Shown here: one piece after another, positions 8,042 through 30,508 of the stretch
Layout: every line of letters starts with the position of its first letter
How positions within the stretch are numbered: position 1 is the stretch's first letter
NCBI GenBank assembly: GCA_004022145.1
Contig: RCNU01000022.1
DNA: 30,508 bases
DNA from: Paecilomyces variotii
Lineage: Eukaryota
Reading direction: 5' to 3' (one strand)
Position numbers and translations under genes: made by a program
The notes under the pieces: generated by a model
The model's input: the letters and a program-made list of their open reading frames with translations, nothing else
Databases searched by the model: none
Told to the model about the DNA's origin: nothing

Positions 8042-8143
8042 GGCAAGGTGGCCGAGTGGTCTAAGGCGCACGGTTCAGGTTTCACCTGATCCATCACATT
8101 CCGTGTCATGAAAATGGCGTGGGTTCGAATCCCACCCTTGTCA
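8042..8143 (+). tRNA. tRNA-Leu(CAG) with a 20-nt intron (8080-8099)
   Basis: Acceptor stem GGCAAGG/CCTTGTC plus discriminator A; D arm TGGCCGAGTGGTCTAAGGCG; anticodon stem CACGG/CCGTG with TT-CAG-G (CAG at 8076-8078); long variable arm; T arm GTGGGTTCGAATCCCAC; TTTTT Pol III terminator at 8148-8152. Confidence 0.95.
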
Positions 8144-8279
8144 TATGTTTTTGTCTCTTATAATATTATTATAAAATTTTTTTTTTATAAAATTATATAT
8201 ATAATATAATATTTATTTATATTTTATTATTAAATAAATATTGTTTAACTTATTTTAAAAGCTAGCTTTTTTAAAAAAA

Positions 8280-9556: not shown

Positions 9557-10445
9557 AATTATAAGCTTAAGTTTATAATAGCTTAAGAAAAATAGCTATA
9601 TAATAAAAACTATTTTATCTTAAATATTTAAGTTTAAACTAGTAATAATAAGCTATTCTTATATAAGAGAATTTATAATAAAACTATTCTAATACTATAT
9701 TAAATATTAAATTTAATAGGGGTTAAATCTTATTAAAGGTTAAAATATTAACTTACTATTATTATATTTTTAATAAATAATATTAAAAATAAGAAAAAAA
9801 AACCTATTTTTATTCTTTTAAAGAAAAACTATAAAAAATAGTTTATTTATATAAAAAGATAGCTTATTAATAAAGATTACTAAAGAGCTATTAAGCTTAT
9901 TAAAAAGCTATATAATAATTAGTTTAATAAGGCTAATATAGCTACTTAATACTAGATTACTAAATATTTATTTAAAGATAATTAAAATAAATTTATTAAC
10001 TCTAATAATATATATATATTATAGAAGGCTCTATAAATAAAATATATAAAAACTCTTTTTAGTTAAAAGCGCTAGCTTATTTAATTATTTATATACTTTT
10101 AAATAACTCTTAAATAAATAATCTTAAATACTTAAAGTTAATTATAATAAATAGAAAAGAGAATTATAATATCTAATAATATAATATTTTTTTTAGCTAA
10201 GCTTAAGACTAAAATATAATAACTATTTTTAATATTATTTAAAAAATATATTATAATTAGAATAATAATTAATATATATAAGAATTTAAAAATAGATAAT
10301 ATTCTAGCTATTTTAAAAAAATAAAAACTTAACTTTAAATAAAATTAACTATTATATTCTTAATAAAAAATAAATAAATTCTTATTAAATATTATATCTA
10401 TAAAGAAAATTATTATATTAAAGATTATCTCTTTTTATTTATTAC

Positions 10446-10802
10446 TGTAAAGAGCCGGGGTAAGGAAGCTCTTTATCGGAGGTAACTAGTCGGACTAGTT
10501 AAACAGAATATAAGATAAGAGGTAAAGACGCAGGCGAGTAATAGTCTATATATAGTAGAGTTAAAGATCAGATTCAGTAGTGATCAGAATAAATTGCTAA
10601 TCTGTCTAACTTCTATTCCTTTAGGGGTTATTTATCTATCTATCTGTTCTACTAGGTCATCTAAATAACCTAGTCTTAACAGCTCTATCTATAACTAGCT
10701 GATCTAACTATTATATATAGCTCTAGTTATCTTATCATCTTTTATTATCTATCCTAGGTCTTAGCAGGTCTAGATTAGGTATTATAGCCCTAGTTCATAA
10801 CA
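10446..10802 (-). repeat. Gypsy 3' LTR
   Basis: Colinear, ungapped repeat of 17466-17822. Confidence 0.95.
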
Positions 10803-11212
10803 GTATCCCCCCCTATTAAAAGGCTCGTCCCGAGCTGTGTGAAGTTTATTATATAGATCTAGATATTTGGGCGTAGCTATAATAACAGTAGTAAATTGCT
10901 ATTAAAGCATGCTTATTATGTGAATTTATCTAATAATAGCTTTATTTTAATATTTTCACCTAGGAGATTAAAAGTGTTTCTATTCTTTGTTAATTAACTT
11001 CTGTCCTCCTGCCTATATATTAAACTATCCTTTCCCTAGTTCTGCAGCTTATTTGGTGCTGTTTTTAATAATTTAAACATAGAAATAGCTGACATTTATA
11101 TAGGTATATTAAAAATAGGATTTTTGAATTGTTTTCTTTATAGATCCTGCGCGTGCGCTTAATATAAGTTATAACCCTTCAGGTTTGTATAATAGTGCTA
11201 ATTAATATAACA

Positions 11213-12472
11213 ATGCCTCCTAAGCGCTTTAAGCGCGTTTTGTTTCTTCTGGGCTCTCCTAATAAGGCCCCTATGGCTAGCCCCAAGCTATTATAGCTGT
11301 CGACTAAAGATTACCTGCTCAATTATTAGCTTATAGATAATAAGTAGCTTAATAAGCTGTCTCCTCCCCCTATATCTCCGACTGCCGATGTGATATCAGA
11401 ACTAACAACTCCTTCTTTATAGATTACTCTATTTACCGCTATTAATAATAGTGATAGAGTGTCTCCGCCAGGGGTATCTGTAGAGGACCCCTTAGTAGAG
11501 GAGCACCTCCTATCTAAGATACGCAGGGATCGGTTTATATCCAGTGATATAATTCCTCTTATATATGAGGAGGTATAGGCTAGTCTATTGCATCCTCTTC
11601 GGAGATTGAAATGTAGTTATAATAATATTGCTCTTACTGTGCCCGCAGCAAAGGAAACTCCTGCTTAGCTAGCTAAAAAACTATAAAGGAGGTTAAAAAT
11701 AAAGGAGGTCCCTAGCACGGAGACTTAGGGAACTTAGGATACTATTATAACTTCTATTCCTGGAGTTAAAGCTACTATTAAGACGCCTCCTCCCCAGATT
11801 AATCCAGCTCTCACTGAGATAGTAATATTAACTACTGTTACTAATGCTGATACAGTAATAGATTGTCCTGCTGCCTTTAAGGCAGACCCTATTATAAATC
11901 CTTTTAGCCCAGAGAGTTTAACCAAAGACTTTCTTCCTGTCCCACAGGAGATGTATCTTTATTATTTAAAGGCCCTGGTGCAGGATTTAAAGCAATAATG
12001 TATCTATCCTTATATTAATACGAAGTATCTCTATTATAAGGGCTTTTATAAGCTATATATCCCTATACTGCTAGTGTATAAGGCCGAGTTAACTTATATT
12101 TAAAGTCTTAGCTAAGAGGCTTACCTCTTAAATAATTTAGAGTCTTTTAATAAGGCTGTAAATATATATATCTCTTCTATAGAGGCATATATGTAGAAAT
12201 CTATATCTAAGACTACTAAATACTAGCTCAGTGCTGCTGCTGTCTTACTAACCCTATTATATTTTAAATTGGAGTTATTGCATCTTCTCCAGGAGTTATA
12301 TTAAATAATCTGTTTATTAAACTATAATATCTTGCGTATAGCAAATATACTTACCCAGTTATAAGGACTGCCTCCGTTCTCTATTAAGGAGGAGGAAGAT
12401 ATTGTTAAGGGATTTTATAGTGATAAAGTAGCTAAATAGGATAATATTATAGGCCTATATTTAGAGCCTTAG
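11213..12472 (+). pseudogene. Antisense extra ORF inside the Gypsy element, about 410 codons, with a Zn2Cys6-like cluster
   Basis: ATG CCT CCT AAG CGC (MPPKR) at 11213; one frame with protein-like composition, broken only by TAG/TAA codons that are explicable as RIP of Gln/Trp/Arg codons. The end is approximate. Confidence 0.7.
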
Positions 12473-12599
12473 CTGGGGCTAGCTTAGTTGAATTAAATTA
12501 TTCCTATTAGGATTCCTTTCTTCTATATTCTCTTTAAAACTCCTAAACCTTATAAGAAAATTAGAGAAAGAGTAATACACATAGCAATATATTTAATAA

Positions 12600-15500
12600 T
12601 AGTTAAAAACCTAGTAGGAGAAAAGTACTATTACCTATCTGTCTTGCTTCGCTTTCTGCTTTATAGCTCTCTTTTACTTTGCCTTTATTTAGGCGGCTTA
12701 TCTGTATTAAGAGCTTTACTAGGGTTCTTATTGTAATACTCCTCTAAAGCTTTAGTCATATATATAAGATCTTCTAATATCTGCTATAAGTTCTTATATA
12801 AAGAATATCCTTTCTATTTCACTAGGAACTGTTTTTTTTTATAAAAAGTCTGTTTGCTAAGGATTTCTTCTACCTCTTATTCCTATTCTCCATTAATAAG
12901 AACTGGGTCTAGCTATTTAGGTTCTATTCCTTCTTATTAATTATAGGGCTCTAGCAGAGAGATATAAAACACCAGATATATCCTACCTAAGCTCTTTGGC
13001 AGTTATAATTAATATGCTTATTTTCTAATTATCTTAATTACTTTATAAGGTCTAGAAAATTAGTAGTCTAATTTCTTATTAGATTAATTAGTTTATAGAT
13101 TCTTTATCGATAGAAGAACTTAATCCCTAACTTTATATAATTTAGGCTTATGCTTTTTATTATAATACTTTACTTGCACCTTAATAGCATATTATAAGTG
13201 CTTCTCTAACTTTGCCCTAATATCTATTAATTCTTTAAGTTGTTCTTTAACAGCGGGAATATTTAATCTTATTCTTATATTGTATTTATCCCAGCTATTA
13301 AGATTAAATCTATAAAAGGCCTTAAATAGTAAGCATTTAGTAGTAGAATACTTTATATTATTATAGGTATACTCCGCTGCACCTAATAATAACGCCCAGT
13401 TATCTTAACAATAATTTATGTATATCTTTAGATAATACTCTAAGGTCTGATTTTAGCACTCTATCTGCCTATCTATCTGTAGATAAAAAGCAGTATTTAT
13501 TAATTAGGTAATTTGTATATACTAATAAAGCTTAGTCTAGTATTTATTAATAAATATTAATCCCTAATTTAAAACAATTAATATCGGGGGATTAAATTAG
13601 TAATATACCCTTTCTATAATTAGGTCAGCCAGGTCTTCTGCTATAATTGTTTCTTAGGTTAAGATATATAGAGCTATCTTAGAGTATCGGTCTATAACTA
13701 CTAAGATTATATTATACTTAACTCTTTATTAAGTTAATAATAGCAGGCTAATAATAAAATTTATTAATATATTTTACTATAGTCTTTCTGCTATAGGTAA
13801 TAAGCTTAACTGCCTATACAGCTTATGTTTAAGAATTTAATTCCTTTTACAGATATTACAGGTCTTTATATATTCTTATATATTATTCCACATACTTGGC
13901 CAGTAGAACTTTTGCCTAAGTAGCTTTTCTATAGTTTTAACTCCTTAATAGCTAGCATATAAATTATTATGATAAATTTATAGTAATTCTTGCTTCAGCA
14001 AATATTTATCTGGGATATAAATTTAATCTTATCTCTATAGCAGACCCTTACTATCTATAGTCTATTTAAAGCTTCTAGATTAATTAGTCTCTAAACTACT
14101 AATCTTCTCTATTATAAAGGTATCCCTCTGCTAGAGCTGTCTAAGCAATTCTAGAAGATTAGGCTTTAGAGAATCCTAGATTATTTCCCTATTAATAACC
14201 TTTAATACTAATAGTCTTAGCAGCAAGTGTTTGCGACTACCTGTGCTATTCTCTTTATTTAAAATATATAGTTTCAGTTTCTTTTATAGGGTAGGCAGCA
14301 GTCTAATCTCTTACTCCTCTTCTAAGAGTTTATAGTCTAGTCTCTAAGATAGTGTATTAGCTATATTTAAATAACCCGGCTTATATTTAATATAAAAGTT
14401 ATAGCCTGCCAGTAGTTTTGCCTATCTTATCTGCCTATTATTTAAAGTCTTTATTATAAAGAAGTAGCGCAGGTTTATATAGTCAGTCTATACCCGAGCA
14501 GAGTATTTATTATTATCTAAATAGTATCTCTAGTATTTAAAAGCTTTAACTATTACTAATAGTTCCTAGTCGTATATTTTATATTAATATTCAATTTCAG
14601 TAAATTTCCTTAAGAAGTATGTAACTAGATGCTACTGCCTTATTACCTTACTTATAATCTATAGTAGAATAGTAGCTAAAGCAAATCCTAAGGCATCTAT
14701 AGCTACTATAATCAGCTTCTCCAGATTATAATGCCGCAATACTAGCGGTTCAATAAATACAGTTTTTAAGTCTTTAAATACTTTCTGTGCTTTAAGTATC
14801 TATTCTAATAAGCCCATCTTTTTATTATACTTACTGCCCTTAAGCAAATCTATTAATAGCGTTGTAATAGAAGAGTAATTATAGATAAATCTTCTGAAAA
14901 AACTTGTAAATCCTAGAAAGACCTAAATATTATAAAAAGTCTTTAATATAGGCCAATTGCAAATTGTTTTAATTCTAAAGAAATCTATTTTAATTCTATC
15001 TTGTCCCACAATAAATCTAAGGAAGAAGACTTCCTCTTTATAGAATTTGCATTTGCTTAGCTTTATATATAAATTATGCTTATAAAGTCTCTCTAGCACT
15101 TTAGAGATATACTATTTATATTCTTTTTTATCTATTAAAAAGATCAGGATATTGTCTAAGTATATAATGCAGTATATATCTAACAGGCCCCTTAGCGCTG
15201 TATTAATATAGGCTTAAAATATAGCCGGAGCATTATATAATCTGAACGGTATAATAAGATATTTAAAATAGCCATATTAAGTTCTAAATGCCATCTTCTA
15301 TTTATCTCCCCTTTATATATATATTCTATAGTAGGCTTTTTGGAGGTTTAGTTTCATAAAGAATCTTACACCTACTAATTAATCTAGTATCTTATTTATC
15401 TATAGCAGTAGATAGCAATTCTTAATTATTTAGGTATTTAGTCCTTAATAATTAATACATAAGCGCAGTTTATTATCTTTTTTAAGGATAAAGATAATTA

Positions 15501-17442
15501 GTAATCTGGCTGGACTAGTTAAAGCCCAAATCTAACCTTATTATTATATGTCTTTTAGATACTTTTATAGTATATCTAGTTCTCTAGCAAAGTATAGGTA
15601 TAGAGGCCTCTATAGCAGTATCTCGCTGTTAATTAGCTCTATTATATAGGTCCTAATATCTTCTGGCAGGGGTAATATTTTAGCTCCCTCTTCTAAGAAG
15701 ATATCTTAGAATTATACATAGTATAGGGGAAATTAAATTTCTTCCTTATCTATTTTAATATATTCCCCTTATATATAATAAATCGGTTAATCTCGCGCTA
15801 TCTCTATAAATGCTTATAGGGTTTAAATCTTAACCTAGGGTAAAGCCTCCTGCTAATATCTCTAAGTCAGGCATCTCTAATCTATAATAGGATTATTGTA
15901 GTATAGCCATAATAATCCTAATATTATATTCTGGTTCTTCTTAATTATATTAAGTTCCTATATAGAAATAATTTGAAAGTTAATTTTATATTGTTTTATC
16001 TTCCCCTCTAAGTCCTTTACCTTAATAGTAACTGGGAAATAGCTATAGATTGGCATTGTTTAATCTCCTATTTATAAGGCACATCCGACTAGCTTTTAGG
16101 GGAACCCTTTATATCTATAGCATAGTAAAAAATCACAGTTAATAAAGTTAGTGTGTGCTTAGGAGTTAAGAAGTGCATTTGTTTTTATAGTATAATCTTT
16201 AATTAGTATATCTACTAAAATTATAAACTCTAGCTCTACGCCTTTAAGTTGCTGGAGCACCCTAAGCCTAACACCTTTATCTTTTAAAAATTCGGAGTCC
16301 TTTATAGTCTTTTTAGGACACTATTTACTAATATATCTGTTTTTCTTATAATTAAAGTATCGCCCTTCTTTTATTAACTATTCTCGCTCCTCTAAGATTT
16401 TAAACTTCCTTAGTTTGCATTCTGAATAGGTCTTTATAGAGGTTAACTAAAATAATTTATCCTTTTACTTATCCTTTATATATAAGTAGAATTAATCCTT
16501 CTCCCTCGCATAAAAATAAAATTATTCCTTCTTTTTATAGTCTTTCAATTGGGTTTTAATAGAGTTTTAAAGACTCTGTTTAACAACTATAGCTTCTGAA
16601 GCTAGTTATAATAGATCTGTCAAGATATATATATACTTAAACAACTAGTTCTATACATCTTCCCATAATATAGAGAAGAAAGTTTAGCTCTAGATATTAT
16701 CCTCTAGGGCTAATTTAGCTTTATAAAGCTTAAATTTATTGCGGAAGTCCTAAGCGGTCTGTTCTAGCTATTACTTTAGCCTCTAGAATTATATAGCGGA
16801 TATCTAGGGTCTAAATCTCAGGTCCTTAAGACAATCTAATAGCTACTGCTAAAATCCCTGCTAAGAAGTTATAGCTAAAGCAGGGGGTTTATAACTTTAA
16901 GCTATTCTATAATTATCCGAAAGCAAAGCAGCGACATAATTTATCTTACTTTCCTCAATTTAAAATGTAGATACATTATAGGTAAAGTATTACTCTATAT
17001 AGCGGCACTAATAATAGTAAGTATTTAGATCCTTAGCTCGGTATTAATAAGGTTCAGACAGTTTAGCGATAGATCTAGATTTAGGAGTTGCATTAATCTA
17101 TTTTATTAACTCTATAATTACAACTATACTTATCTTTTCTAATAATCCTTAAGTTGCATCTTATAGAGCTCCTATTGCTGTATTATTGACTTAACATAAT
17201 ACATCTAGCGAGATAATAGGTCCGGCACTAACAGTATTTAATTCTAGTTAAAGACTAGGGTCTATAATACTTCTTAGATTAGCTAGATTTCCTAGATCTA
17301 TAGCAGTTATTAATCCAGGCTAAGCGCCAGGCTCTGAACTATATTCAGGTTCGGATTCAAACCACACCAGTCTTAGGTTATTTATAGATTCTCTATGCTA
17401 ATCTTCAGCACTACTTCCTGATATCTCTTCTTTTTCTAATAT
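12600..17442 (-). pseudogene. Gypsy gag-pol in a single frame: Gag zinc knuckle, protease, RT, RNase H, integrase, chromodomain
   Basis: RYFNYKKNRYISK*CP = CCHC knuckle (~16315-16365); ALLNS*AHTNFI protease (~16141-16176); GDK*KMAFRT*YGYFKYLIIPFRLYNAPAIF* (~15215-15310); YLDN = YLDD (15151-15162); KKLDY*FSRPYKV = GPY/F (~13040-13078); E*EVEEILS..FLVK*KGY..NL* chromodomain (~12780-12885). The knuckle, protease, RT and chromodomain were checked to share one frame. Ends are approximate. Confidence 0.92.
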
Positions 17443-17465
17443 GCTGCTAGTCGAGCGATTCAAAC

Positions 17466-17822
17466 TATAAAGAGCTGGGGTAAAGAAGCTCTTTATTAGA
17501 GGTAACTAGTCGGACTAGTTAAATAGAATATAAAATAAGAGATAGAGATATAGGCGAGTAGCAGTCTACGCATAGTAGAGTTAAAAATCAGATTTAGTAG
17601 TAATCAGAATAAATTGCTAATCTATCTAACTTCTATTCCTTTAGGGATTATTTATCTATCTATCTGTTCTATTAGGTCATCTAGATAACCTAGTCTTAAC
17701 AGCTCTATCTATAACTAGCTAATCTAACTATTATATATAGCTCTAGTCATCTTGTTATCCTTTATTATCTATCCTAGGTCTTGGCAGGTCCGGATTAGGT
17801 ATCGTAGCCCTAGTTCATAACA
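17466..17822 (-). repeat. Gypsy 5' LTR
   Basis: Repeat of 10446-10802, followed by the TSD ATTAC. Confidence 0.95.
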
Positions 17823-20800
17823 ATTACTTAAAGAAGTATAAGAAATAATTAAAAATAAAGAAAGAAATCTCTTAAATAAATATTTAATAATTTTATTATT
17901 TAAGATAAGATAATAATAGAAATAATTAATAAAATTTATAAGAAGATTTAATCTTTAAAAAATAAAAGATTAAAAAATAAGAAATAAAGAGTATATAATA
18001 TAAAAGAAATCTTAGATATTAAAAAAAGCTAATCTTAATTAAAATTCTTAGCCTTAATTACTTTTAATAACTAAGTCTTATATAAAATTACTTATCTTTT
18101 AAAAGATATTACTAATAAAAATTTATTTTAATAATATATAGATAATAGTATTAGTTTATATATAATTAATAAAAACTATTATTTTAAAGAACTACTAATC
18201 TAGATTTAATAAAGGTATATTTATATAAATAAAGAGATCTTATATTTAGAATATATAGAGATAGTTATTTTAAAAGATAAAAATAAGAAGATATTAAACT
18301 TAGAAAATATATTACTTATATTAAACCTTAGGGTAAATCTTTTATTAACTAAAATATTTTACTAATAATTAAATATACGCAGATATTTTAATAAAAGAAT
18401 AATATCTATATTAAATAAGTTAGATAAGGTTATAATTTAAAATACTATTAAATATAGAATTTATATTATTAAGAGAGTTTTTTTAAACTAAATACTTAAA
18501 TTATAATATATACCTATTATATTACTCTTTATTAAAGATACTCTTAATACTATAATTATAGACTAAGAAAAAGAATTTTATTAAAATAAAATTAAGAAGA
18601 AGTATTAACTATAGTATAAAAGAATTAACTATTTTAAACTTAAAAAGGTTAGAAACTTATATAATTTAACTATATTAAAGAAGCCTATTAAAATAATAAT
18701 AGACTATTAATATATAATATATACTATAGCTAATATTAGAAATAAAAAAGAGACTATTAATATATAAAAGGCTAATATTCTTAAATTTATCTATATAAAT
18801 ATATATAGTTAAATATTAAAATCTAAAAATAAATATATTTACTTTTTAATAGTTATAGATAATTTTTTAAGAAAAATATAAGTATTTCTAATAAAAGCTA
18901 AATCTAATACTGCCCCTATCTTAAATAAATAAAAAAAGAGATTAAGATAATAATAGGTCTTTAAATTCTTAGTATATAATTAAATAATATATTAGAATTT
19001 AAAAATCTTTTTAAGACTTAAAGGAAATAGTTTAATATCTATTATAAACTAATAATTCTATATATATTAATATAAAATAGAGCTATAAAATAAATATATT
19101 AAACTATTAAAAAAGGAATAAGAGTTATATTTAAAAATTTAAACCTTTTAGTTAAATTATAGATAGAGATAGCTTAAACTAATATATATATTAAAAATAA
19201 AATATTAAATAGACTAATAATTAATAGGGTTTAAATATCTTTAGAAAAAGCTTTTACTAGAGTTAAGCTATTAATTAATTACTTAAAAGTATAGAGATAT
19301 TAAGCGGTATTATATATAAACTTAAAATCTTTACTATAAGGTATATAAAGAGATAAATTAATAAATTAAGGCAGAATCTATATTTTTATAAAATATATTA
19401 AGGGAATAAATAAATAATAGAAAGTTTAAGCTCTAGATATAAAAAAGACTATTAAAACCTATTAAGCTAAGTTCTTTAAAAATAAATTAAAAAAAGATTT
19501 AAATCTTAAGATTCTTAGAAGATTATTATTAAATATAATATTAATAAAGAATTTAAAAGGTTAACTAATAACTTAGCCTATTATCTTAAATATATATATA
19601 CCTTTAAATAAAAAGAAGAATAATATAAATAATTAAGAAAAGAATTATAAAGAAGTTCTAATTTTTCCTTAAAAAGAAAAAAAATATTTTATTAAAAGAA
19701 AATTAAAATATTTTTTTAAAAAGAAAAAGAAACTTTTTATTATAATAAAATTATAGAATAAGAGAAAATATTTAATTATTCTTATTTTAATAATTTAAAT
19801 AATTATAAAAACTTATAAATAAACTTCTTATTTTTATTAAGTAAATAAGTTATATCTTATATAAAGATTCTCTATATAATAAAATATAAGAGAAAGGAGA
19901 TTAAGTTATTAAATAATAAATAAGATATTAAGAAGTTATATTAAGTAATACTTATACTAAATCTTCTATCTTTAAGTATTAATATAGATTAAGAGAATAT
20001 ATAAAATAAGTATTAAATACTATAATAGCAGTATATATAATAAAAAATATATTTTAATTTTAAACTTATATTATACTATAATTAATAACTCTATTTAAAG
20101 TAAACTATAGTAAAATATATTTAAAGCTAAAATAAATATACTTTAAATAAATAGAATTTTTAAAGTAGTTATACTATTATTAAGAGCTAATATTATAATT
20201 AATTATTAAATATTAGCTATAAAATATAATTTAAATAGTTCTCTTTAGAAGCTTAAGATATATCTTATTATTTAAGAGTTTATTTAGAAATATAATATTA
20301 ATTTTAAATATATCTTTACTTCTATCTTATAATATAATATAATATAAATATTTTTAGCTATTATTATAATAGAGAATTATAAGTATTATATTATAAATAT
20401 TAATAATATCTTTATAAAATTAATATTAAAGAAAGAAATCTATATAATACTTTTACGAAAAATAAATATATTATTAAAAATAATATTAAAAGTTTTTTAA
20501 TCTTTATATAGTTTAAAATAAGCTATAAAAGATTAGAATTAAACCTATATAAAAATACTCTAGAAAATAAGTTTTATATAAACCAATATTAATCTATATT
20601 TATTATAATACTTAAAGAAAGAAATCTTATTCTTAATATATATTAATAATATTTTAATTAATATAAAATAAATAGAGAGTATTTATTAGTTTAAATAAGA
20701 GTTTAAATTAATATATAAAATAAAGAACTTAAGAGAAATAAAGAAAATTCTTAATATTTAAGTTATTTAAAATAAGTAAGACTAAATATTAATAATAGAC

Positions 20801-21952: not shown

Positions 21953-23187
21953 TAAAGAATATTTTATTATCTTTTATATCTATAGTATAAGCTAATATAC
22001 CTTTTTCTCTAAGTATAATATTAGCCTCTTTAAGCTATTAAATTAGTTTAAGAAATTTTAATTAAGAACTTATTCTTTTTAAGTTAATTAATTAAAATAT
22101 TTTAAACTAAGCTATAAGTAGCTTTTATAGAGTAATAAAGATATTAGCTAATAATTTTATTTTCTTATTTTAATAATAAGAATATTTAATAAAGAGTATT
22201 ATTAAGAGAGAAAATAATATAAAAACTAATTAATTTATTAAGCTATAGCTATTTTAAGATATTATTATTATATATAATATAAATAAAAGCCTTTTTTAAT
22301 TCTTAAAGAAATATTTTAATATTCTTAAATTAAAAATATTATATACTTAAATATCTTATAAATATCTTTAATATCTTCTTAAACTTCTTTAAGATATAAT
22401 TAAGACTATTATATATAAGAACTATTATAAAATAATAATTAGAACTAGTAAATTCTAGTATAATAAAGATTTTATTTTAAGAAAATCTTTAAGAATAATT
22501 TTATTTTAATAAAATTAAGCAGCTTAGAGAAATTATTTCTTAAGCTTTATATAAAATCTATTACCTTAACTAAGAATATATAGATATATATTTTATATCT
22601 ATTATATATGCTAATACTTTTTCTTTTTAAATATTATTAACTCTTTAAGTTATTAAATTAATCTAGAGAATTTTATTTAAACCTATTCTTTTTAATTAAT
22701 TATAAAATTAGATCGGGATATAGCTCGGCCCAGCCGGGGCTAAGCTCAGCCTACCTGAAAAGCTCAGCCCACCCAAGAAAAATCTAGGTTCAGCTCAGAC
22801 ACTAAGTTAGTTTTAGTATAGTATTTAGGTGGGCTTAGTATATATACAGCTTATATAATTTATAATAAAGTTTTTATATTATATTGCAGTAAACTATATT
22901 TATTAAGAACTATATATAGCATATGCTCTGTACTATATTGTAATATATGCTAAGTATAGGTTAGAGCAACGCTAAGATATATATAGGGAGCTAGAACTGA
23001 TGTTATTCTGCGCAGTTTATTAAGGTGGTATATATAAAGGCGGTTGTTGAGTATATGCTGAAGCGATATTAGAATCTTATTATATAGAAGTTTATATTGT
23101 TTATATTATTTTTAACCTCCCTAATAATGCCTTTACCCTGCTTTTATAGTACTATAGTCTACTCTTTTATATTATTACTATATAATT

Positions 23188-24420
23188 ATGAAAATGCTAT
23201 TATATTTAAAGGAACTCTTTACCTATAATACAGTTTTATCAATAGGTAATCTAATAAACTACAGGTATTACTATAATAAGTATATCTTTATTTAATATTA
23301 AGCATATGCTAAATAAAAATAGGCCCAGTTCTTAATTTAAATCTAATATAGATCCCAGACTTATATACTACAGCTAAGCAAGAAAATAAGAAATCTAATA
23401 AATAGATATTATATATATATTAAAAGCGCGCTAAATATAGACAGTGCCTGTAATTATTGCTAAAAAAAATACTTATATACTAACCCCTAAATCTTCTATC
23501 TTAAGCGTAAATAGGAATATATAAGTCCTTTCTTTAAAATTAACTAAGCATATATTAAGCTTTTATAGTTACTAGGTATAGATAAACATAGATAGCCCGC
23601 TTATATACAATAAGGTTATTAATTCACAGCCTGCTATAAGTCTAATATAAGTTTTATATATATATAATATGCTAATAGTTGAAGTTATAATATTATATAA
23701 AGACTACACACCTGGGGGTAAGTATATTATTATCTTTAGTATATACTAGATATATATTAATCTACTATAATATTAAACTATAATATAGAGACTAATAATA
23801 TAATTATAGATAAAAAGATAATTAGGCTGCAGTAAGTTTAAGATCTATTCTATATATACTAGAGCTATACTAATAATATATAATATGCTAATTAAATACA
23901 TTTTACTTAGCAAGTAGTAAAACACCAACTTTATTTATAAACTATAGTAAGTCTTAAATATATATAGAGCTTATATTAAGCTAATATTTCTTCTAATGCA
24001 AGAAGTATATTAATTAAGAGTATTGCTATATTCTGCAAAAAAATAGCTTGCGCTAATAATAAGTTTAAAAACAGCTATAAGAGCTAGTTTTATTAAAGAG
24101 TAAGTTTAATATATGCTAATATATAAATAGGATCTATATACTATCTTTTTTACTATTTATATTGCTATTTATATTACTATTTATATATAATTTATAACTC
24201 TTAGCAGGCTTTTTAGATACATTTAATATATGCCTAATATTAACTTTAACTAATCTTAGCCTTTATTCCAGTATCCTATATCTTTATTAACCCTATCTCG
24301 CAAATATATAATAAGTATACCCCTGCCTGCATTATATATATGCTAACCTTATATAGACTAGAAATATCTTACTACTATAAAATAATAATAATAAAAATAA
24401 TAGTAAGTAGCCTTCTAATT
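23188..24420 (+). pseudogene. Candidate second multi-intron gene of the MULE, convergent with the transposase; product unknown
   Basis: ATG at 23188; plus-strand donors GTAATC 23246, GTAAAT 23507 and GTAAGT at 23718, 23832, 23947, 24100 and 24403, several followed by GCTAA branch-like sites and AG. Boundaries are approximate. Confidence 0.5.
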
Positions 24421-24760
24421 TATCTTATATATATACTAAACTAGGTTATAATATAGGTCTTATCTTAACTTTATTAAAGCACAGATAGTCTATATCTTAT
24501 AATAAATATGCGAGTAAATATACTGCCGATAAAGAAATACTAACTAAACTAGAATATAGCTATGCTTATAATTATAGCTATAGATATCCTTATAATATTA
24601 GTAGCTATAGTACTAAGTCTACTAATAAGTTTTTCTCTTTTATATATAGAATATATACTAAGTTTATATCTATAAGTTATGATTTTTTTTTCTAAGGATA
24701 AGTTTTCAGAGGCCTTAAATATATAGATATTTAAGCCCAGCTCTCCCCCAAGCATATGCT

Positions 24761-24856
24761 TAATACCGAACTTCGGTTTAATACTAAGCTCTTATGCTTA
24801 AAGATTGTTAATGCTGAACTTCAGTTTAATACTAAGTTTTTATATTTAAAGACTAT
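24761..24856. repeat. 48-bp tandem repeat, 2 copies
   Basis: taataccgaacttcggtttaatactaagctcttatgcttaaagattgt followed by a transition-only variant at 24809. Confidence 0.8.
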
Positions 24857-25288
24857 TTTTTTATATCTTTAAATAATTGCAATATAATATTTTTTATTTT
24901 TTTATTTATTCTTATTGTAGGGGAAAAGGAAATATATATATATATTTATTATATAACTATAGCTATATAGATATATATATTTATTATATAAACTACTGTA
25001 ATAATTCTTCTCTTTTTTGCTTAAATTCTTATTGCCTTTACTTTATTATTTTTCTTAATTAAATAGCAAAATTAGTCTCTGCTATTTCTTCTAATAAGGG
25101 TCCTCTATTATAGTATATATAAGCTCTATTTTATCCAGAATCTGTACTTAACTTTTAGATAATATATGCCGGATATAGAGTTAGTATATGCTCTAAATTA
25201 AAACTAGCAGAGCTATCTGAATTTAATAAAAGGGTTTAAACCCTTCTAGGTATTGGGACGGTATTAAATTAAATCTGGCCTTAAATAT

Positions 25289-25637
25289 AACTAGAACCTC
25301 TAGATTAACCCCTTCCTTAACCTTTATTTAGTATATACTCTGTACTTAATCTGCGTTGAGAATAATAATCTGAGTCTAATTCTTTAGAGCTTAGCTTAGT
25401 TTATTTAGTCCTAGATTAAACCTAGCTCTGACAACAACCGGAACCTCTAGATTAATCCCTTTCTTAATCTCTATTTAGTATATATTCTATATTTAATCTG
25501 CGTTAAGAATAATAATCTAAGTCTAATTCTTTAGAGCTTAGCTCAGTCCGCTTAGTCCTAGATTAAATCTAGCTTTAATAATAACTAGAACCTCTAGATT
25601 AACCCCTTTCTTAACCTTTATTTAGTATATACTCTAT
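25289..25637. repeat. 147-bp tandem repeat, about 2.4 copies
   Basis: GAACCTCTAGATTAA recurs at 25294, 25441 and 25588. Confidence 0.9.
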
Positions 25638-28600
25638 AAATATTTTATCTCTAGCTAATATATATTTAATAAAAGGTTTAGATAAAGATATTAAAACAAC
25701 CTTAAAATTAGCATCTTTATTAGAAGATTAATTATTATTATTATCTAAAGGTATATTATAGGGATTATTAAGATTAAATAATAAATAAGATTAATTCATT
25801 TAATAATTAGCAGCTCTTTAATTCTATTAGTCTAAAAGATATGTTCAGCATATGTTTAAAGGTATATTAAACTTTTATCTTACTATTTCTCTGTATCTAT
25901 TGGGAGATCTATATAGTATTACTATAGTTTTACTATGTATTATTAATATTATAGCTAAAAAGCTCTTATTATTTAATAATATCTTCTATATATTATTATA
26001 GACTAAATATAAATTAGCCTTATTAATATTTAATCTATACTAGATAGATACTAAGCATATGCTGAGTATAGATATACTGTTAAATAGCCCCCAGTAAAGA
26101 TAGGTTTCTCTCTATATTATAATTATCTTAGAAGTAACTACTTTTAGATAATCTAGTATGCTTTTAAGCATAACTCTACTATTTAAAAGGGATTTTTAAT
26201 ATTTCCCGTGATAATACAGTAAGAATCTATAGTTTTATTTTGCTTTAAAGCTATTTTTTAATATCTAGATATTCCTCACCCTATTAATATATAGTTTGAA
26301 GGATTTTTTAGTAAGAATATAAATCCTATAGATATTTTAGTTGATAAATAAGGGGATAGGATCTTTTAAATTTTTTATAGAAATTGCGTTCAATATATAT
26401 TTAGTAGAAGATAAGTATATGCTTAAGATATTTTTGCCAGTTAAGGGAAGAATAAATAGAATATAAGTAGTTACTAAAGCCTAAATATATTTAGTATATA
26501 TTTTGCATCTATTGAGATAATATTAACTAAATGCTTATTTTTTATATATATCTACAGTAACAGTCTATATCCCTTCTCTATTTAAAATATATGCCTATTA
26601 AATATATTAATATATAGCTTATGATAATATTTAAAATAGTAATTTAAATATTTAAAAATATATATAATAAGTTTGTAGAGAGACAAAAGTATAACAATAA
26701 GTATTAATCCCTAATATAAAGTTAGTATATGCTAAACGCATAATAAAGAGAAGTTAAATATATATTTAGCTTTAGAATTCCAGCTTGAGATCAAAAAGAT
26801 ATTTATATTTCTAAGTATTATTTTGTAAGTTAAATCTATTTTAAGATATTTAGCTTTTATAAATATTTTTACTTAAGCATTTATATAATAAATAATAATA
26901 TATTCTCTAGTTTTACTAATATTAACTGCGCAAATCTATTATTTATCACTTTTTCTGCGTTGGTCAAACTTATACTCTTATATAACCCCTATATAGTATT
27001 AGTATATGCAAAATATATAATAAGAATAGATTCTAACTGGTAATATCTGAACTAAATAGGTATTGCAGAAGTTTTTATTTTTAAATTAAATAAGCAATTT
27101 TATCCTTAATATTTAAAGAAGCTCTAATTAAATTTAGAGCTTAACCTTAATATTTTTGCTTAAATATATATACTTTAGGAGATATTAAAAATTTGTCTAT
27201 AAGTATCTGGTCAGCATATACAGAATATAAGCTTAAGGTATATATAATATACGCGCAGTTATAGTAAGAATATCTCTTTAATTAATTAGATCTATAAGTT
27301 TTTAAGCAAAATCTTAACTCAACTTAGTTAATAATAAAAGAAAATATATATAATCTTCTCAACAAACAAGAAGGATAAAAAGAAAATAATCCTAATTATA
27401 AGGAATAAAAATATTAATTAAAGCATTATATTCTTTGTATAGAACTTTAGATACACCTTAAAGATAGTTAAATCCTAGACCTATAGTTAGTATATACCTA
27501 ATATATATAGAGCAAATACCTACTATAAGTTATACGCCTTAAAGTAGTATAGTTAATATAAATACAAATAGATTAAATAAGAGTATTAGTACTATATATC
27601 CTATAAGCTACTAAAATATATAGATAAGGCATATAAATTTAAGCTATATATATAGAGATAGCTTATACAATATGCTATAATTTAAAATCACTTGCTAACA
27701 GGCAACTAATAAAGGTAACTAGTGGCTAAGGATATATTTAGTATATGCCGAGATTAAATATAGAGTTAAACTTACTTTATATTATTTAAAGATTACTAGA
27801 ATTTAATTTAAGCATACCTATATTTTATTTTCTAGATAAAAATAATGCCCTGCTAATTGTTAATTCTAAAAATAAAGAAATCTATTATATTAATTTTTAG
27901 TTTCTCTTTTAAGAAATTTACTAGCAAAAGTAGTATTAGATATATAGCTTACTTCTTTATAAAGCGTTTTAAAGATATTTAGTTTAATATAGCTATATTT
28001 ATAGCATTATCTAAATATATACTCCGGCATATACTTATAATATTTAATACCGCTACATTTATATGCCTAATAATATGCCTTGCTTTAAATTTTATCCTTT
28101 TTATCCTTTTAAAAAAGTAGAAGAGATAAGATCTTATAATTGCCTTAAATATAGAGCCTAAACTGGATCTAAGCTATACTTAGCATATGCTTATAATATA
28201 TTAAACATCTGCTTAAGATAAGGTATAGACATACCTTTAATAAAAATTATTAAAATATTTAATAAATATTTATACTAAAACAATTATAAGATAAAGAATT
28301 TTTTTAATAAATAAAATATAAGATACTACTAAAATAAGTTATTAGATATTTAGGAATAGATAACTTATCCTAAATACTATTAACTATAATCTTAGAGATA
28401 CTACCGCGGCTAATAATAATGCCTATAAAAGAAATAGCCTCCTAGATATGCTTAGTATATGCCTTATTAAAACTTATATAAAAAGAATATATCTAATCAA
28501 GTCCTATATAAAAAGGAAATTTAGGATATATTTTAAATTTTTTATCTTTGCTTTTTATACAGGAATAGATACTGCTTTAATTATTTATTATATTCTCAAA

Positions 28601-30508
28601 CTAGTTTAGGTGTGCTTTATAAAGGTTATAGTTCTATATAAGTTCGCTCTATAATAAATTAGCATCCAGTTTAAATATAATAGATATTAAATATATGCTT
28701 AGCATCTGCTAGGCCTCTATAGGAATTATATTAATATACCCGGATAAGAATATCATGCAGCTATTAACTAAGAATACTATTAATTTAGCTATCAGTTATA
28801 GTTATTTAGTTCTCAGCTATTTTTAAATATTTGGGGAAAAAGTAATAGTACTTAGCTTTATATTAGCTATTATATATATATATATTATAAATTCTAAAGA
28901 GTTTTATTGTATAAATATTATTATTAATCCTTAAATAGGCTAACCTTATATTAATTATGCAATCGGCTTATACTGAGCTTATACTTGATCTATGCGTAAA
29001 GTGGGTTAAGCTTAACCTAGCTAAGGATGAGCTCTAGGGTAGGCTGAGCTCCTAGGGTAGGCTGAGCTTAGCCCCGGCTGGGCCGAGATATATACCCAAA
29101 TTAGATTTATAATAATTTAAGAGAAATAGCTATATAATAAAAACTATTTTATCTTAAATATTTAAGTTTAAATTAATAGTAATAAGCTATTCTTATATAA
29201 GAGAATTTATAATAAGATTATTTTAATATTATATTAAGTATTAAATCTAATAGAGATTAAATTCTATTAAAGATTAAAATATTAATCTATTATTATTATA
29301 TCTTTAATAAATAATATTAAAAATAAGAAAGAGAAACTTATTTTTATTTTTTTAAAAGAGAATTATAAGAAATAGTTTATTTATATAAAAAGATAGCTTA
29401 TTAATAAAAATTACTAAAGAGCTATTAAGTTTATTAAAAAGCTATATAATAACTAGTTTAATAAGGCTAATATAATTACTTAATATTAAATTATTAAATA
29501 TTTATTTAAAGATAATTAAAATAGATTTATTAATTTTAATAGTATATATATATTATAAAAGGCTCTATAAATAAAATATATAAAAACTCTCCCTAATTAA
29601 AAGCGCTAATTTATTTAATTATTTATATATTCTTAAATAATTCCTAAATAAATTATCTTAAATACTTAGAATTAATTATAATAGATAAGAAAGAGAATTA
29701 TAATATCTAATAGTATAATATTTTCTTTAATTAAACTTAAAGCTAAAATATAATAATTACTTTTAATACTATTTAAAAAATATACTATAATTAAGATAAT
29801 AATTAATATATATAAGAATTTAAAGGTAGATAATATTTTAGCTATTTTAAAAGAAATAAAAACCTAAATTTAAATAAAATTAACTACTATATTTTTAATA
29901 AAAAATAAATAAATCTTTATTAAATATTATATCTATAAGGAAGATTATTATATTAAAAATTATCTATTTCTATTTATTATTTAGAGAAATATAAGAGATA
30001 ATTAAAAATAGAGAAAGAAGTCTTTTAAGCAAATATTTAATAATCTTATTATTTAAGATAAAATAATAATAGAGATAATTAATAAAATCTATAAGGAGAT
30101 TTAATCCTTAAAGAATAAGAGATTAAAAAATAAAAAATATAAAGTATATAATATAGAAGAAATCTTAAATATTAAAAAGAGCTAATTTTAATTAAAATTC
30201 TTAGTCTTAATTACCTTTAATAATTAAATCTTATATAAGATTACTTATCTTTTAAAAGATATTATTAATAAAAATTTATTCTAATAATATATAAATAATA
30301 ATACTAGTTTATATATAATTAATAAAAATTATTATTTTAAAGAATTATTAATTTAAATTTAATAGAGGTATATTTATATAAGCGGAGAAATCCTATATTT
30401 AAAATATATAGAAATAGCTATTTTAAGAGATAAGAATAGGAAGATATTAAACTTAGAAAATATATTATTTATATTAAACCTTAGGGTAAATCTTTTATTA
30501 ATTAAGAT

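Follow-up and report, generated by a model that had tools for sequence, protein, structure and literature searches.

The Mutator-like elements (MULEs) most comparable to the element described here carry open reading frames in addition to the transposase, among which mudrB, mutB and vanB/C are listed (PMC6446971). A table in the same source gives a fungal subgroup with '1 or 2' ORFs, and therefore a database entry for a family such as the present one may exist. In Arabidopsis, VANC21 is described as binding a 9-bp motif in the introns and spacers of its own MULE, and the VANC targets, which differ between families, form tandem repeats; the VANC domains are given as DUF1985 and DUF287 (PMC5735166). 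For the plant VANDAL elements it has been shown that a protein encoded by the transposon can counteract silencing in a sequence-specific way, and no such case in fungi was found in the literature searched. RIP and methylation are the main fungal defences.

In maize MuDR, mudrA and mudrB are convergent. As far as its descriptions go, mudrB is the second gene of a TIR-bounded MULE with a 9-bp TSD and points toward the transposase, as in the locus studied here; we know of neither a C2H2 finger nor intronic motif arrays in mudrB. Mutyl of Yarrowia lipolytica is the only fungal MULE with a named second gene that was found, and its mutB is given a DNA-binding role in one review, whereas another paper calls its function unknown (PMC6446971, PMC5014426, PMC9865632). 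The review is inconsistent on the orientation of mutB as it is described there; Mutyl differs in being a yeast element with 22-bp TIRs, and the comparison with mutB is made by description, not by sequence. Fungal DNA transposons carrying TET/JBP are likewise cut-and-paste elements, and their passenger gene has been proposed to act against silencing, but that passenger is an enzyme thought, in the account available, to act without target specificity (PMC12730594), whereas the element described here bears its own motif arrays.

The window, by which the whole analysed stretch of 30,508 nucleotides of Paecilomyces variotii contig RCNU01000022.1 is meant, contains a RIP-degraded MULE of about 6.4 kb (22714-29097). 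Its parts are as follows:

22705..22713, no strand: left TSD, 9 bp; the same 9-mer recurs at 29098-29106
22714..22790, plus strand: left TIR, about 75 bp
25265..25705, minus strand: tail of the transposase, tandem repeats of 147 bp that encode AT-hook-like units containing RGRP
25746..28441, minus strand: RIP-degraded MULE-type transposase gene (span of homology, not exact gene ends)
29020..29097, minus strand: right TIR
29098..29106, no strand: right TSD, 9 bp, the same 9-mer as on the left

The 9-bp TSDs, which also bound copies L044 and L047, lie within the 8-11 bp of MULEs, and the TIRs of about 75 bp are those of a TIR-type MULE, which distinguishes the window element in the VANC comparison. 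The transposase is of the MULE DDE type, judged from an intact relative (P0006), with an ESM Atlas feature score of 0.96 to a MULE cluster and a structure at TM 0.72 to FAR1/MULE models, and from the match of the transposase profile to the window copies (E 1e-28). Pfam gave no hit in 9/9 transposase relatives, and the family is therefore a divergent one. The 147-bp repeats number three in the window element and more in other copies, each holding the palindrome described below; AT-hooks have been reported in MULE transposases (PMC1702500).

The second gene of this element, referred to as gene 2, is a real accessory zinc-finger gene of this fungal MULE family, has apparently not been described before, and is accompanied by helically phased palindromes in its introns. 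No description of the gene or of the motif in fungal transposons was found in the literature searched, which took in neither Repbase nor most subscription journals.

Structure of gene 2

The sequence-only reading had proposed a second, intron-rich, mudrB-like accessory gene at 23188-24420, convergent with a minus-strand transposase. The strand of the transposase and the convergence of the two genes are as proposed, and a spliced ORF exists in both the RIP-aware consensus and intact relatives; the end had been placed too early, as gene 2 extends about 380 bp farther. Gene 2 lies on the plus strand from about 23194 to about 24800 and has 11 introns in the model, of which intron 8 measures 172 nt and the other ten 42-52 nt. 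A branch-site-like word is located 14-15 nt before the 3' end in seven introns and 10-23 nt before it in the rest. The palindrome in the following list is GCATATGC; all features are on the plus strand.

22838..23072, plus: leader of gene 2, four GCATATGC sites
about 22912-22960 and 23030-23072, plus: possible (putative) 5'-UTR introns in the leader
23194..23275, plus: exon 1, ATG at 23194; start of the conserved NP..G[YH]HHGP motif
23276..23322, plus: intron 1, palindrome at 23302; donor damaged here, GT in 8/13 copies
23323..23397, plus: exon 2
23398..23444, plus: intron 2, palindrome at 23413
23445..23520, plus: exon 3
23521..23568, plus: intron 3, palindrome at 23548; donor damaged in 13/13 copies
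23569..23635, plus: exon 4, two Cys codons of the C2H2-type finger (23570, 23606)
23636..23684, plus: intron 4, splitting the finger; palindrome at 23656
23685..23721, plus: exon 5, two His codons of the finger (23694, 23709)
23722..23770, plus: intron 5, two palindromes 11 bp apart (23739, 23750)
23771-23831, 23884-23946 and 23997-24099, plus: exons 6-8, conserved helical region past the finger
23832-23883 and 23947-23996, plus: introns 6 and 7
24100..24271, plus: intron 8, 172 nt, two palindromes; donor common to an intact relative
24272-24310, 24357-24402, 24445-24624 and 24677 to about 24800, plus: exons 9-12, variable tail; stop position uncertain
donors 24311, 24403 and 24625, plus: introns 9-11

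Five exact GTAAGT words on the plus strand, previously read as donors, are indeed present (23718, 23832, 23947, 24100, 24403). Their clustering within 700 bp stood, since it appeared in 0/1000 order-1 and 0/1000 order-2 Markov simulations of the element, but an enrichment of the word did not extend to the whole window (17 matches against 15.2 expected). The first of them turned out to be a RIP artefact, as GTAAGT occurs there in 3/13 copies and in most the second letter is still C; a GC donor at this place was rejected on phase, and the donor at 23722, 4 nt downstream, agrees in phase with intact relatives. Seven donors are RIP-damaged in the window copy (23276, 23398, 23521, 23636, 23722, 24311 and 24625); intron 3 is nevertheless common in position and phase to the window model and the intact relatives. 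The peptide formerly assigned to exon 2 does occur in the window, but almost the whole of it falls within intron 2, and the TAT-rich part of the peptide is decayed GCATATGC; the suspected C-x-C-x5-C-x2-C motif is likewise intronic. The acceptor of intron 8 is less certain, having been picked by frame and low divergence; a 31-nt alternative at 24100 was disfavoured as too short, and the next 140 nt diverge like an intron. Introns 9-11 and the tail exons are based on the open frame and the subfamily comparison and lie outside the homologue profile.

Copies, relatives and selection

The genome contains many copies of the element, and all copies examined are heavily RIP-mutated. The left 2.2 kb was aligned for 13 copies of the window subfamily and for four copies, all partial, that belong to a second subfamily; L054 (439 nt), another partial copy of the latter, fell below the length cut. 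In the RIP-aware consensus C or G was taken wherever any copy retains it; this may over-correct single sites, and sites mutated in all copies stay unrepaired. Gene 2 is present in 13/13 aligned copies, with partial matches in the four of the second subfamily, and in intact relatives, which disposes of the concern that it might be a host fragment unique to one copy.

The spliced model has 4 stops in 317 codons against 19 and 38 in the other frames (P=1e-4 under a random-phase null, an optimistic value as some acceptors were picked to keep the frame). Transversions between the subfamilies number 20, 15 and 70 at codon positions 1, 2 and 3, with 307 sites each (P=3e-12). RIP makes no transversions, and this test is therefore independent of RIP; the excess at third codon positions indicates that the modelled frame has been under purifying selection. 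A model of the window family scores 124 bits against a profile built from six intact relatives only, and the first eight introns match the intact relatives in both position and phase (8/8). These comparisons show a spliced, selected and family-wide gene in the element, and gene 2 of the window is, on this evidence, a copy, inactivated by RIP, of an accessory gene that genuinely belongs to a family of fungal Mutator-like transposons.

Divergence between the subfamilies is uneven, transversions reaching 23% at gene-2 third positions, 2.3% in introns (15/646) and about 1% in the transposase region. As a side observation from the comparison of window 23194-24800 with L059, L032, L058 and L053, the introns lie about tenfold below the third positions. 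A module swap together with constrained introns could be the source of this pattern. Among distant intact genes four-fold sites are saturated, and orthologous introns are barely more alike than non-orthologous ones.

When 12 unprocessed frames from two RIP copies were compared with Pfam there were 0 hits, and a search of this genome for an intact gene 2, made with one query, likewise yielded no match. Reads of four runs were compared with copy L052; three runs gave almost only transitions and one placed none, and among the joints listed there was no modelled-intron joint with splice-site ends. A contig of run X20 matches intron 1 alone (L052:6003-6053; window 23273-23323), with flanks that are less AT-rich; its exon-1 side resembles the His-rich motif, and its exon-2 side has stops in the modelled frame.

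A word-based homologue search with the RIP-damaged transposase alignment found none, and an index-free profile search with the damaged transposase found 30 proteins, which include unannotated proteins of Aspergillus, Penicillium, Polytolypa, Blastomyces and Annulohypoxylon. Through the transposase relatives 51 metagenome loci were fetched, of which 44 were listed for gene 2 and seven short ones omitted; many are redundant, with about nine distinct lineages by eye. Clear gene 2 is found in 17 of the 29 loci with at least 2 kb past the transposase match, 16 convergent and one on the same strand. In 10 more there are weak traces, at E 0.02-0.6, which amount to between one and three exons and lie on the strand of the transposase; L111 gave no trace, and L105, also one of the 29, lay outside the weak-trace search. 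Three relatives (L077, L082, L087) are intact TIR-bounded elements of about 6 kb, the first 15 bp or so of their TIRs being similar to those of the window element.

The arrangement of the genes varies. L120:1100-4661 holds two tandem gene-2 paralogues, 64% identical over the conserved part and both convergent with the transposase, whereas gene 2 lies on the transposase strand in L073, L084 and L091, with degenerate traces in L100 and L103-L122. Orientation has therefore flipped during the history of the family. The comparison with mudrB consequently applies to the convergent layout in the window but fails for those relatives; gene 2 resembles mudrB by layout only, a likeness of gene order and not of sequence.

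Among 8000 candidates scored, 14 gene-2 homologues were recovered. Full-length ones occur in several ascomycetes, the sources including Tricladium, a Xylariaceae species, Phialocephala, Coniella, Paramyrothecium and Aspergillus tanneri, and all are hypothetical or uncharacterised, as the accessory protein had been expected to be; the UniRef name of one is 'C2H2-type domain-containing'. Six are NCBI entries, and KAH8684404.1 and XP_033423058.1 are examples of natural homologues that are intact. None of the 14 is a Yarrowia or MURB protein. The contigs behind one homologue (P0037, 355 aa) do not exceed 1291 nt and could not accommodate about 13 introns, so that P0037 is probably a spliced transcript. 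It agrees with the modelled junctions of L087 up to the end of the conserved region and lacks one intron that the L087 model had read through. Gene 2 is thus probably expressed in a relative, if P0037 is correctly taken as a spliced transcript.

The encoded protein and the palindrome

The conserved part of the gene-2 protein, about 185 residues, consists of a His-rich N-terminal motif, one C2H2-type finger and a helical region. The finger motif (23570-23711), which is split by intron 4, has two Cys and two His ligands that are invariant in 12/12 intact homologues, the spacing C-x12-H-x3-5-H followed by a helix (residues 98-105 in a low-confidence model), and a long Cys-Cys loop of 9-11 residues. 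The Pfam zf-C2H2 gathering score was not reached in three proteins (13.7-15.8 bits against a cut-off of 25.2), and below-threshold matches to it were obtained in 7/12 homologues at E<=0.5, the best at 0.0015. In the RIP copies the first and second Cys codons are retained in 6/13 and 2/13, respectively; the first His codon is TAT in 13/13 and the second His is retained in 1/13.

The helical region is marked by an invariant Trp and Pro and has no family or fold match by Pfam, Foldseek or the wide structural search. The tail is variable and in several homologues rich in Pro, Ser, Arg and Lys. An AlphaFold model of P0039 is of low confidence (mean pLDDT 59); with it Foldseek returned nothing at E<=0.001 and the wide structural search a best Z of 2.2. 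A sequence search of the PDB gave weak C2H2 matches only, P0037 had no match in ESM Atlas that scored 0.9 or higher, and no enzyme domain was detected. It is plausible from these sequence features that the gene-2 product is a DNA-binding protein, and it is therefore a fair candidate for a binder of the palindrome.

The palindrome GCATATGC is a perfect one of 8 bp that occurs 20 times in the consensus, with the tandem-repeat region removed, against 0.38 expected. Its half-sites reach 5.6 per kb in the element and 0.7 in the retrotransposon of this window, which is likewise RIP-mutated. Of the sites in gene 2, 13 fall in introns and one in the last exon, and the palindrome, full or RIP-decayed, is found in 11/11 introns. 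Among all 8-mers it ranks first in 31 of the 38 metagenome loci that measure 3 kb or more, and fourth or better in 36. Six intact genes have, over their conserved part, 41 exact sites in introns and none in exons, a count that is partly circular because the splice models of the relatives had a small motif bonus, although the junctions agree with homology and with P0037. A half-site is present in 51/54 introns of these genes. That the palindrome is a mere end-product of RIP was rejected, as only GCATATGC itself, of 16 possible sources, occurs in the consensus and it is present in intact relatives.

The sites are also regularly spaced. For 181 exact sites from 11 loci, near-copies were counted 131 times at a distance of 11 bp, 33 times at 22 bp and 12 times at 33 bp, with at most six at each other distance from 4 to 40 bp; the signal is weak in the damaged window family, whose 20 sites give three such cases at 11 bp. 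Clusters of sites follow one another at intervals of some 40-400 bp, and the palindrome is also found between the two genes and near the element ends. In the transposase gene many sites are flanked by donor-like and acceptor-like words, and some are apparently in coding sequence.

Two aspects of the comparison with VANDAL21/VANC21 and VANC6 of Arabidopsis are highlighted. First, as far as these systems are described, they share with the present element a MULE accessory gene and a short motif, arranged in tandem arrays, that is dense where the cognate element does not code for protein, introns included; the VANC gene, like gene 2 between the two subfamilies, diverges faster than the transposase. 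Second, VANC proteins carry DUF1985 and DUF287, whereas the gene-2 protein has a C2H2-type finger and neither of these domains (no Pfam hit in 12/12 homologues at E<=0.5); the VANC motifs are non-palindromic as printed and family-specific, whereas GCATATGC is palindromic and kept across distant relatives. On the main reading given below the gene-2 protein would be VANC-like in logic; by domain content it is not a VANC.

Candidate roles of gene 2

Our main reading, to which we assign a probability of about 0.5, is that gene 2 encodes a DNA-binding regulator specific for the GCATATGC arrays of its own element. The motif is absent from 9/9 MITEs with related TIRs, even with one mismatch, and seems dispensable for mobilisation, although these MITEs may rely on a sister transposase. 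Since a finger protein travels with a motif that seems dispensable in this sense, gene 2 is the best candidate reader of the arrays, a proposal for which the odds stand near even. The protein would recognise the arrays sequence-specifically, and because a palindrome with 11-bp phasing suits one-face assembly of a protein that binds double-stranded DNA, several molecules could sit along one face of the helix and coat the element at intervals of roughly 40-400 bp. A single C2H2 finger reads about 3-4 bp, and an extra domain or oligomers would therefore have to contribute. The bound protein might regulate the family's own expression or chromatin, and the many short introns would be a way of parking binding sites inside coding sequence.

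As to the effect of binding, activation or VANC-like counter-silencing is our preferred guess, by analogy and tentatively. The zinc-finger protein of what would be a widespread ascomycete MULE family might keep the element transcribed, or shield it from methylation, heterochromatin or pairing-based silencing; full protection from RIP is ruled out, as all copies examined in this genome are RIP-mutated. Anti-silencing has been demonstrated in the published VANC work, whereas for gene 2 it is a candidate role by analogy. Should the shielding reading be true, which we regard as possible but doubtful, the fungal system would be an independently evolved counterpart of plant VANC.

Several observations speak against gene 2 as the reader. 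The motif is constant across distant relatives, unlike the family-specific VANC targets, and a host factor or the transposase as reader would explain this constancy as well; moreover, some motif copies are apparently in transposase coding sequence, and motif and branch site overlap in several introns. The arrays might be read by the transposase or by a conserved protein of the host, leaving gene 2 another job such as that of a MURB-like insertion helper, a reading that we consider tentative and less likely than the main one. Sequence-specific activation of cognate copies has been reported for a MULE transposase (bioRxiv 10.64898/2026.08.24.746577), mudrB is given as apparently required for integration (PMC6446971), and a variant of the motif lies at the right TIR end, next to the unchanged state of GCATATGC across relatives. 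Against this reading it can be said that the nine MITEs spread without the motif, that the TIRs have short repeats of their own, which differ between families and are likelier transposase sites, and that the exact motif is absent from the host-gene part of the window and from 25 kb of control DNA of the same genome. The exact motif is also absent from two un-RIPped transposase homologues of this genome; loci of this kind, available for comparison and lacking the motif, are few and could be domesticated genes.

It is unlikely that the 11-bp unit acts at the RNA level or builds introns, with no dedicated binder and with gene 2 unrelated to it. The unit supplies branch-site-like and acceptor-like letters, so that tandem copies could have become introns; in several introns GCATATGC leads directly into the branch site, some 15 nt ahead of the acceptor, and introns that are not orthologous resemble each other almost as much as orthologous introns do (0.56-0.60 against 0.59-0.68), which would point to one template. 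However, the motif is a perfect palindrome, is also intergenic and near the element ends, stands apart from the branch site in introns 2, 6 and 7, and keeps a strict 11-bp phase that fits a turn of the DNA helix and not splicing. That gene 2 is a captured, Pack-MULE-like host fragment without function for the element is largely refuted and very improbable, for although homologues are annotated on long fungal contigs, the gene occurs in 13/13 aligned copies and, as partial matches, in four of the second subfamily, with a third-position excess between the two subfamilies, stands beside the transposase in 17/29 long metagenome loci with weak traces in 10 more, and lies inside complete TIR-bounded elements with introns that bear the element's motif.

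For the question of counter-silencing in fungi the family provides a candidate protein of small size, a sharply delimited 8-bp site that is repeated at 11-bp spacing, and natural copies that are intact, so that binding and reporter assays could address it directly. Storage of binding sites would, if true, be a testable reason for the unusually dense short introns, and a set of fungal 'hypothetical proteins' gains a likely identity as transposon passengers.

Several further observations concern the surroundings of the element. The nine MITEs, of about 510 bp (L033-L041; G000 C20, C27, C24, C34, C33, C22, C36, C37 and C57), have TIRs about 85% like those of the window element. The un-RIPped transposase homologues (L123:7576-9008, G000 C1, and L125:7064-7328, G000 C23) are possibly domesticated genes, and gene 2 was not detected near them. 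A second RIP-degraded family with the same transposase type, 57% identical, is found at L042:3000-8001 (G000 C34); a search for gene 2 found none there, and some motif half-sites are present. The retrotransposon that served as the motif-density control is a RIP-degraded LTR element with direct repeats of about 380 bp at window 10444-17823, and at window 8045-8145 a tRNA-like sequence, seen by eye, borders an AT-rich block.
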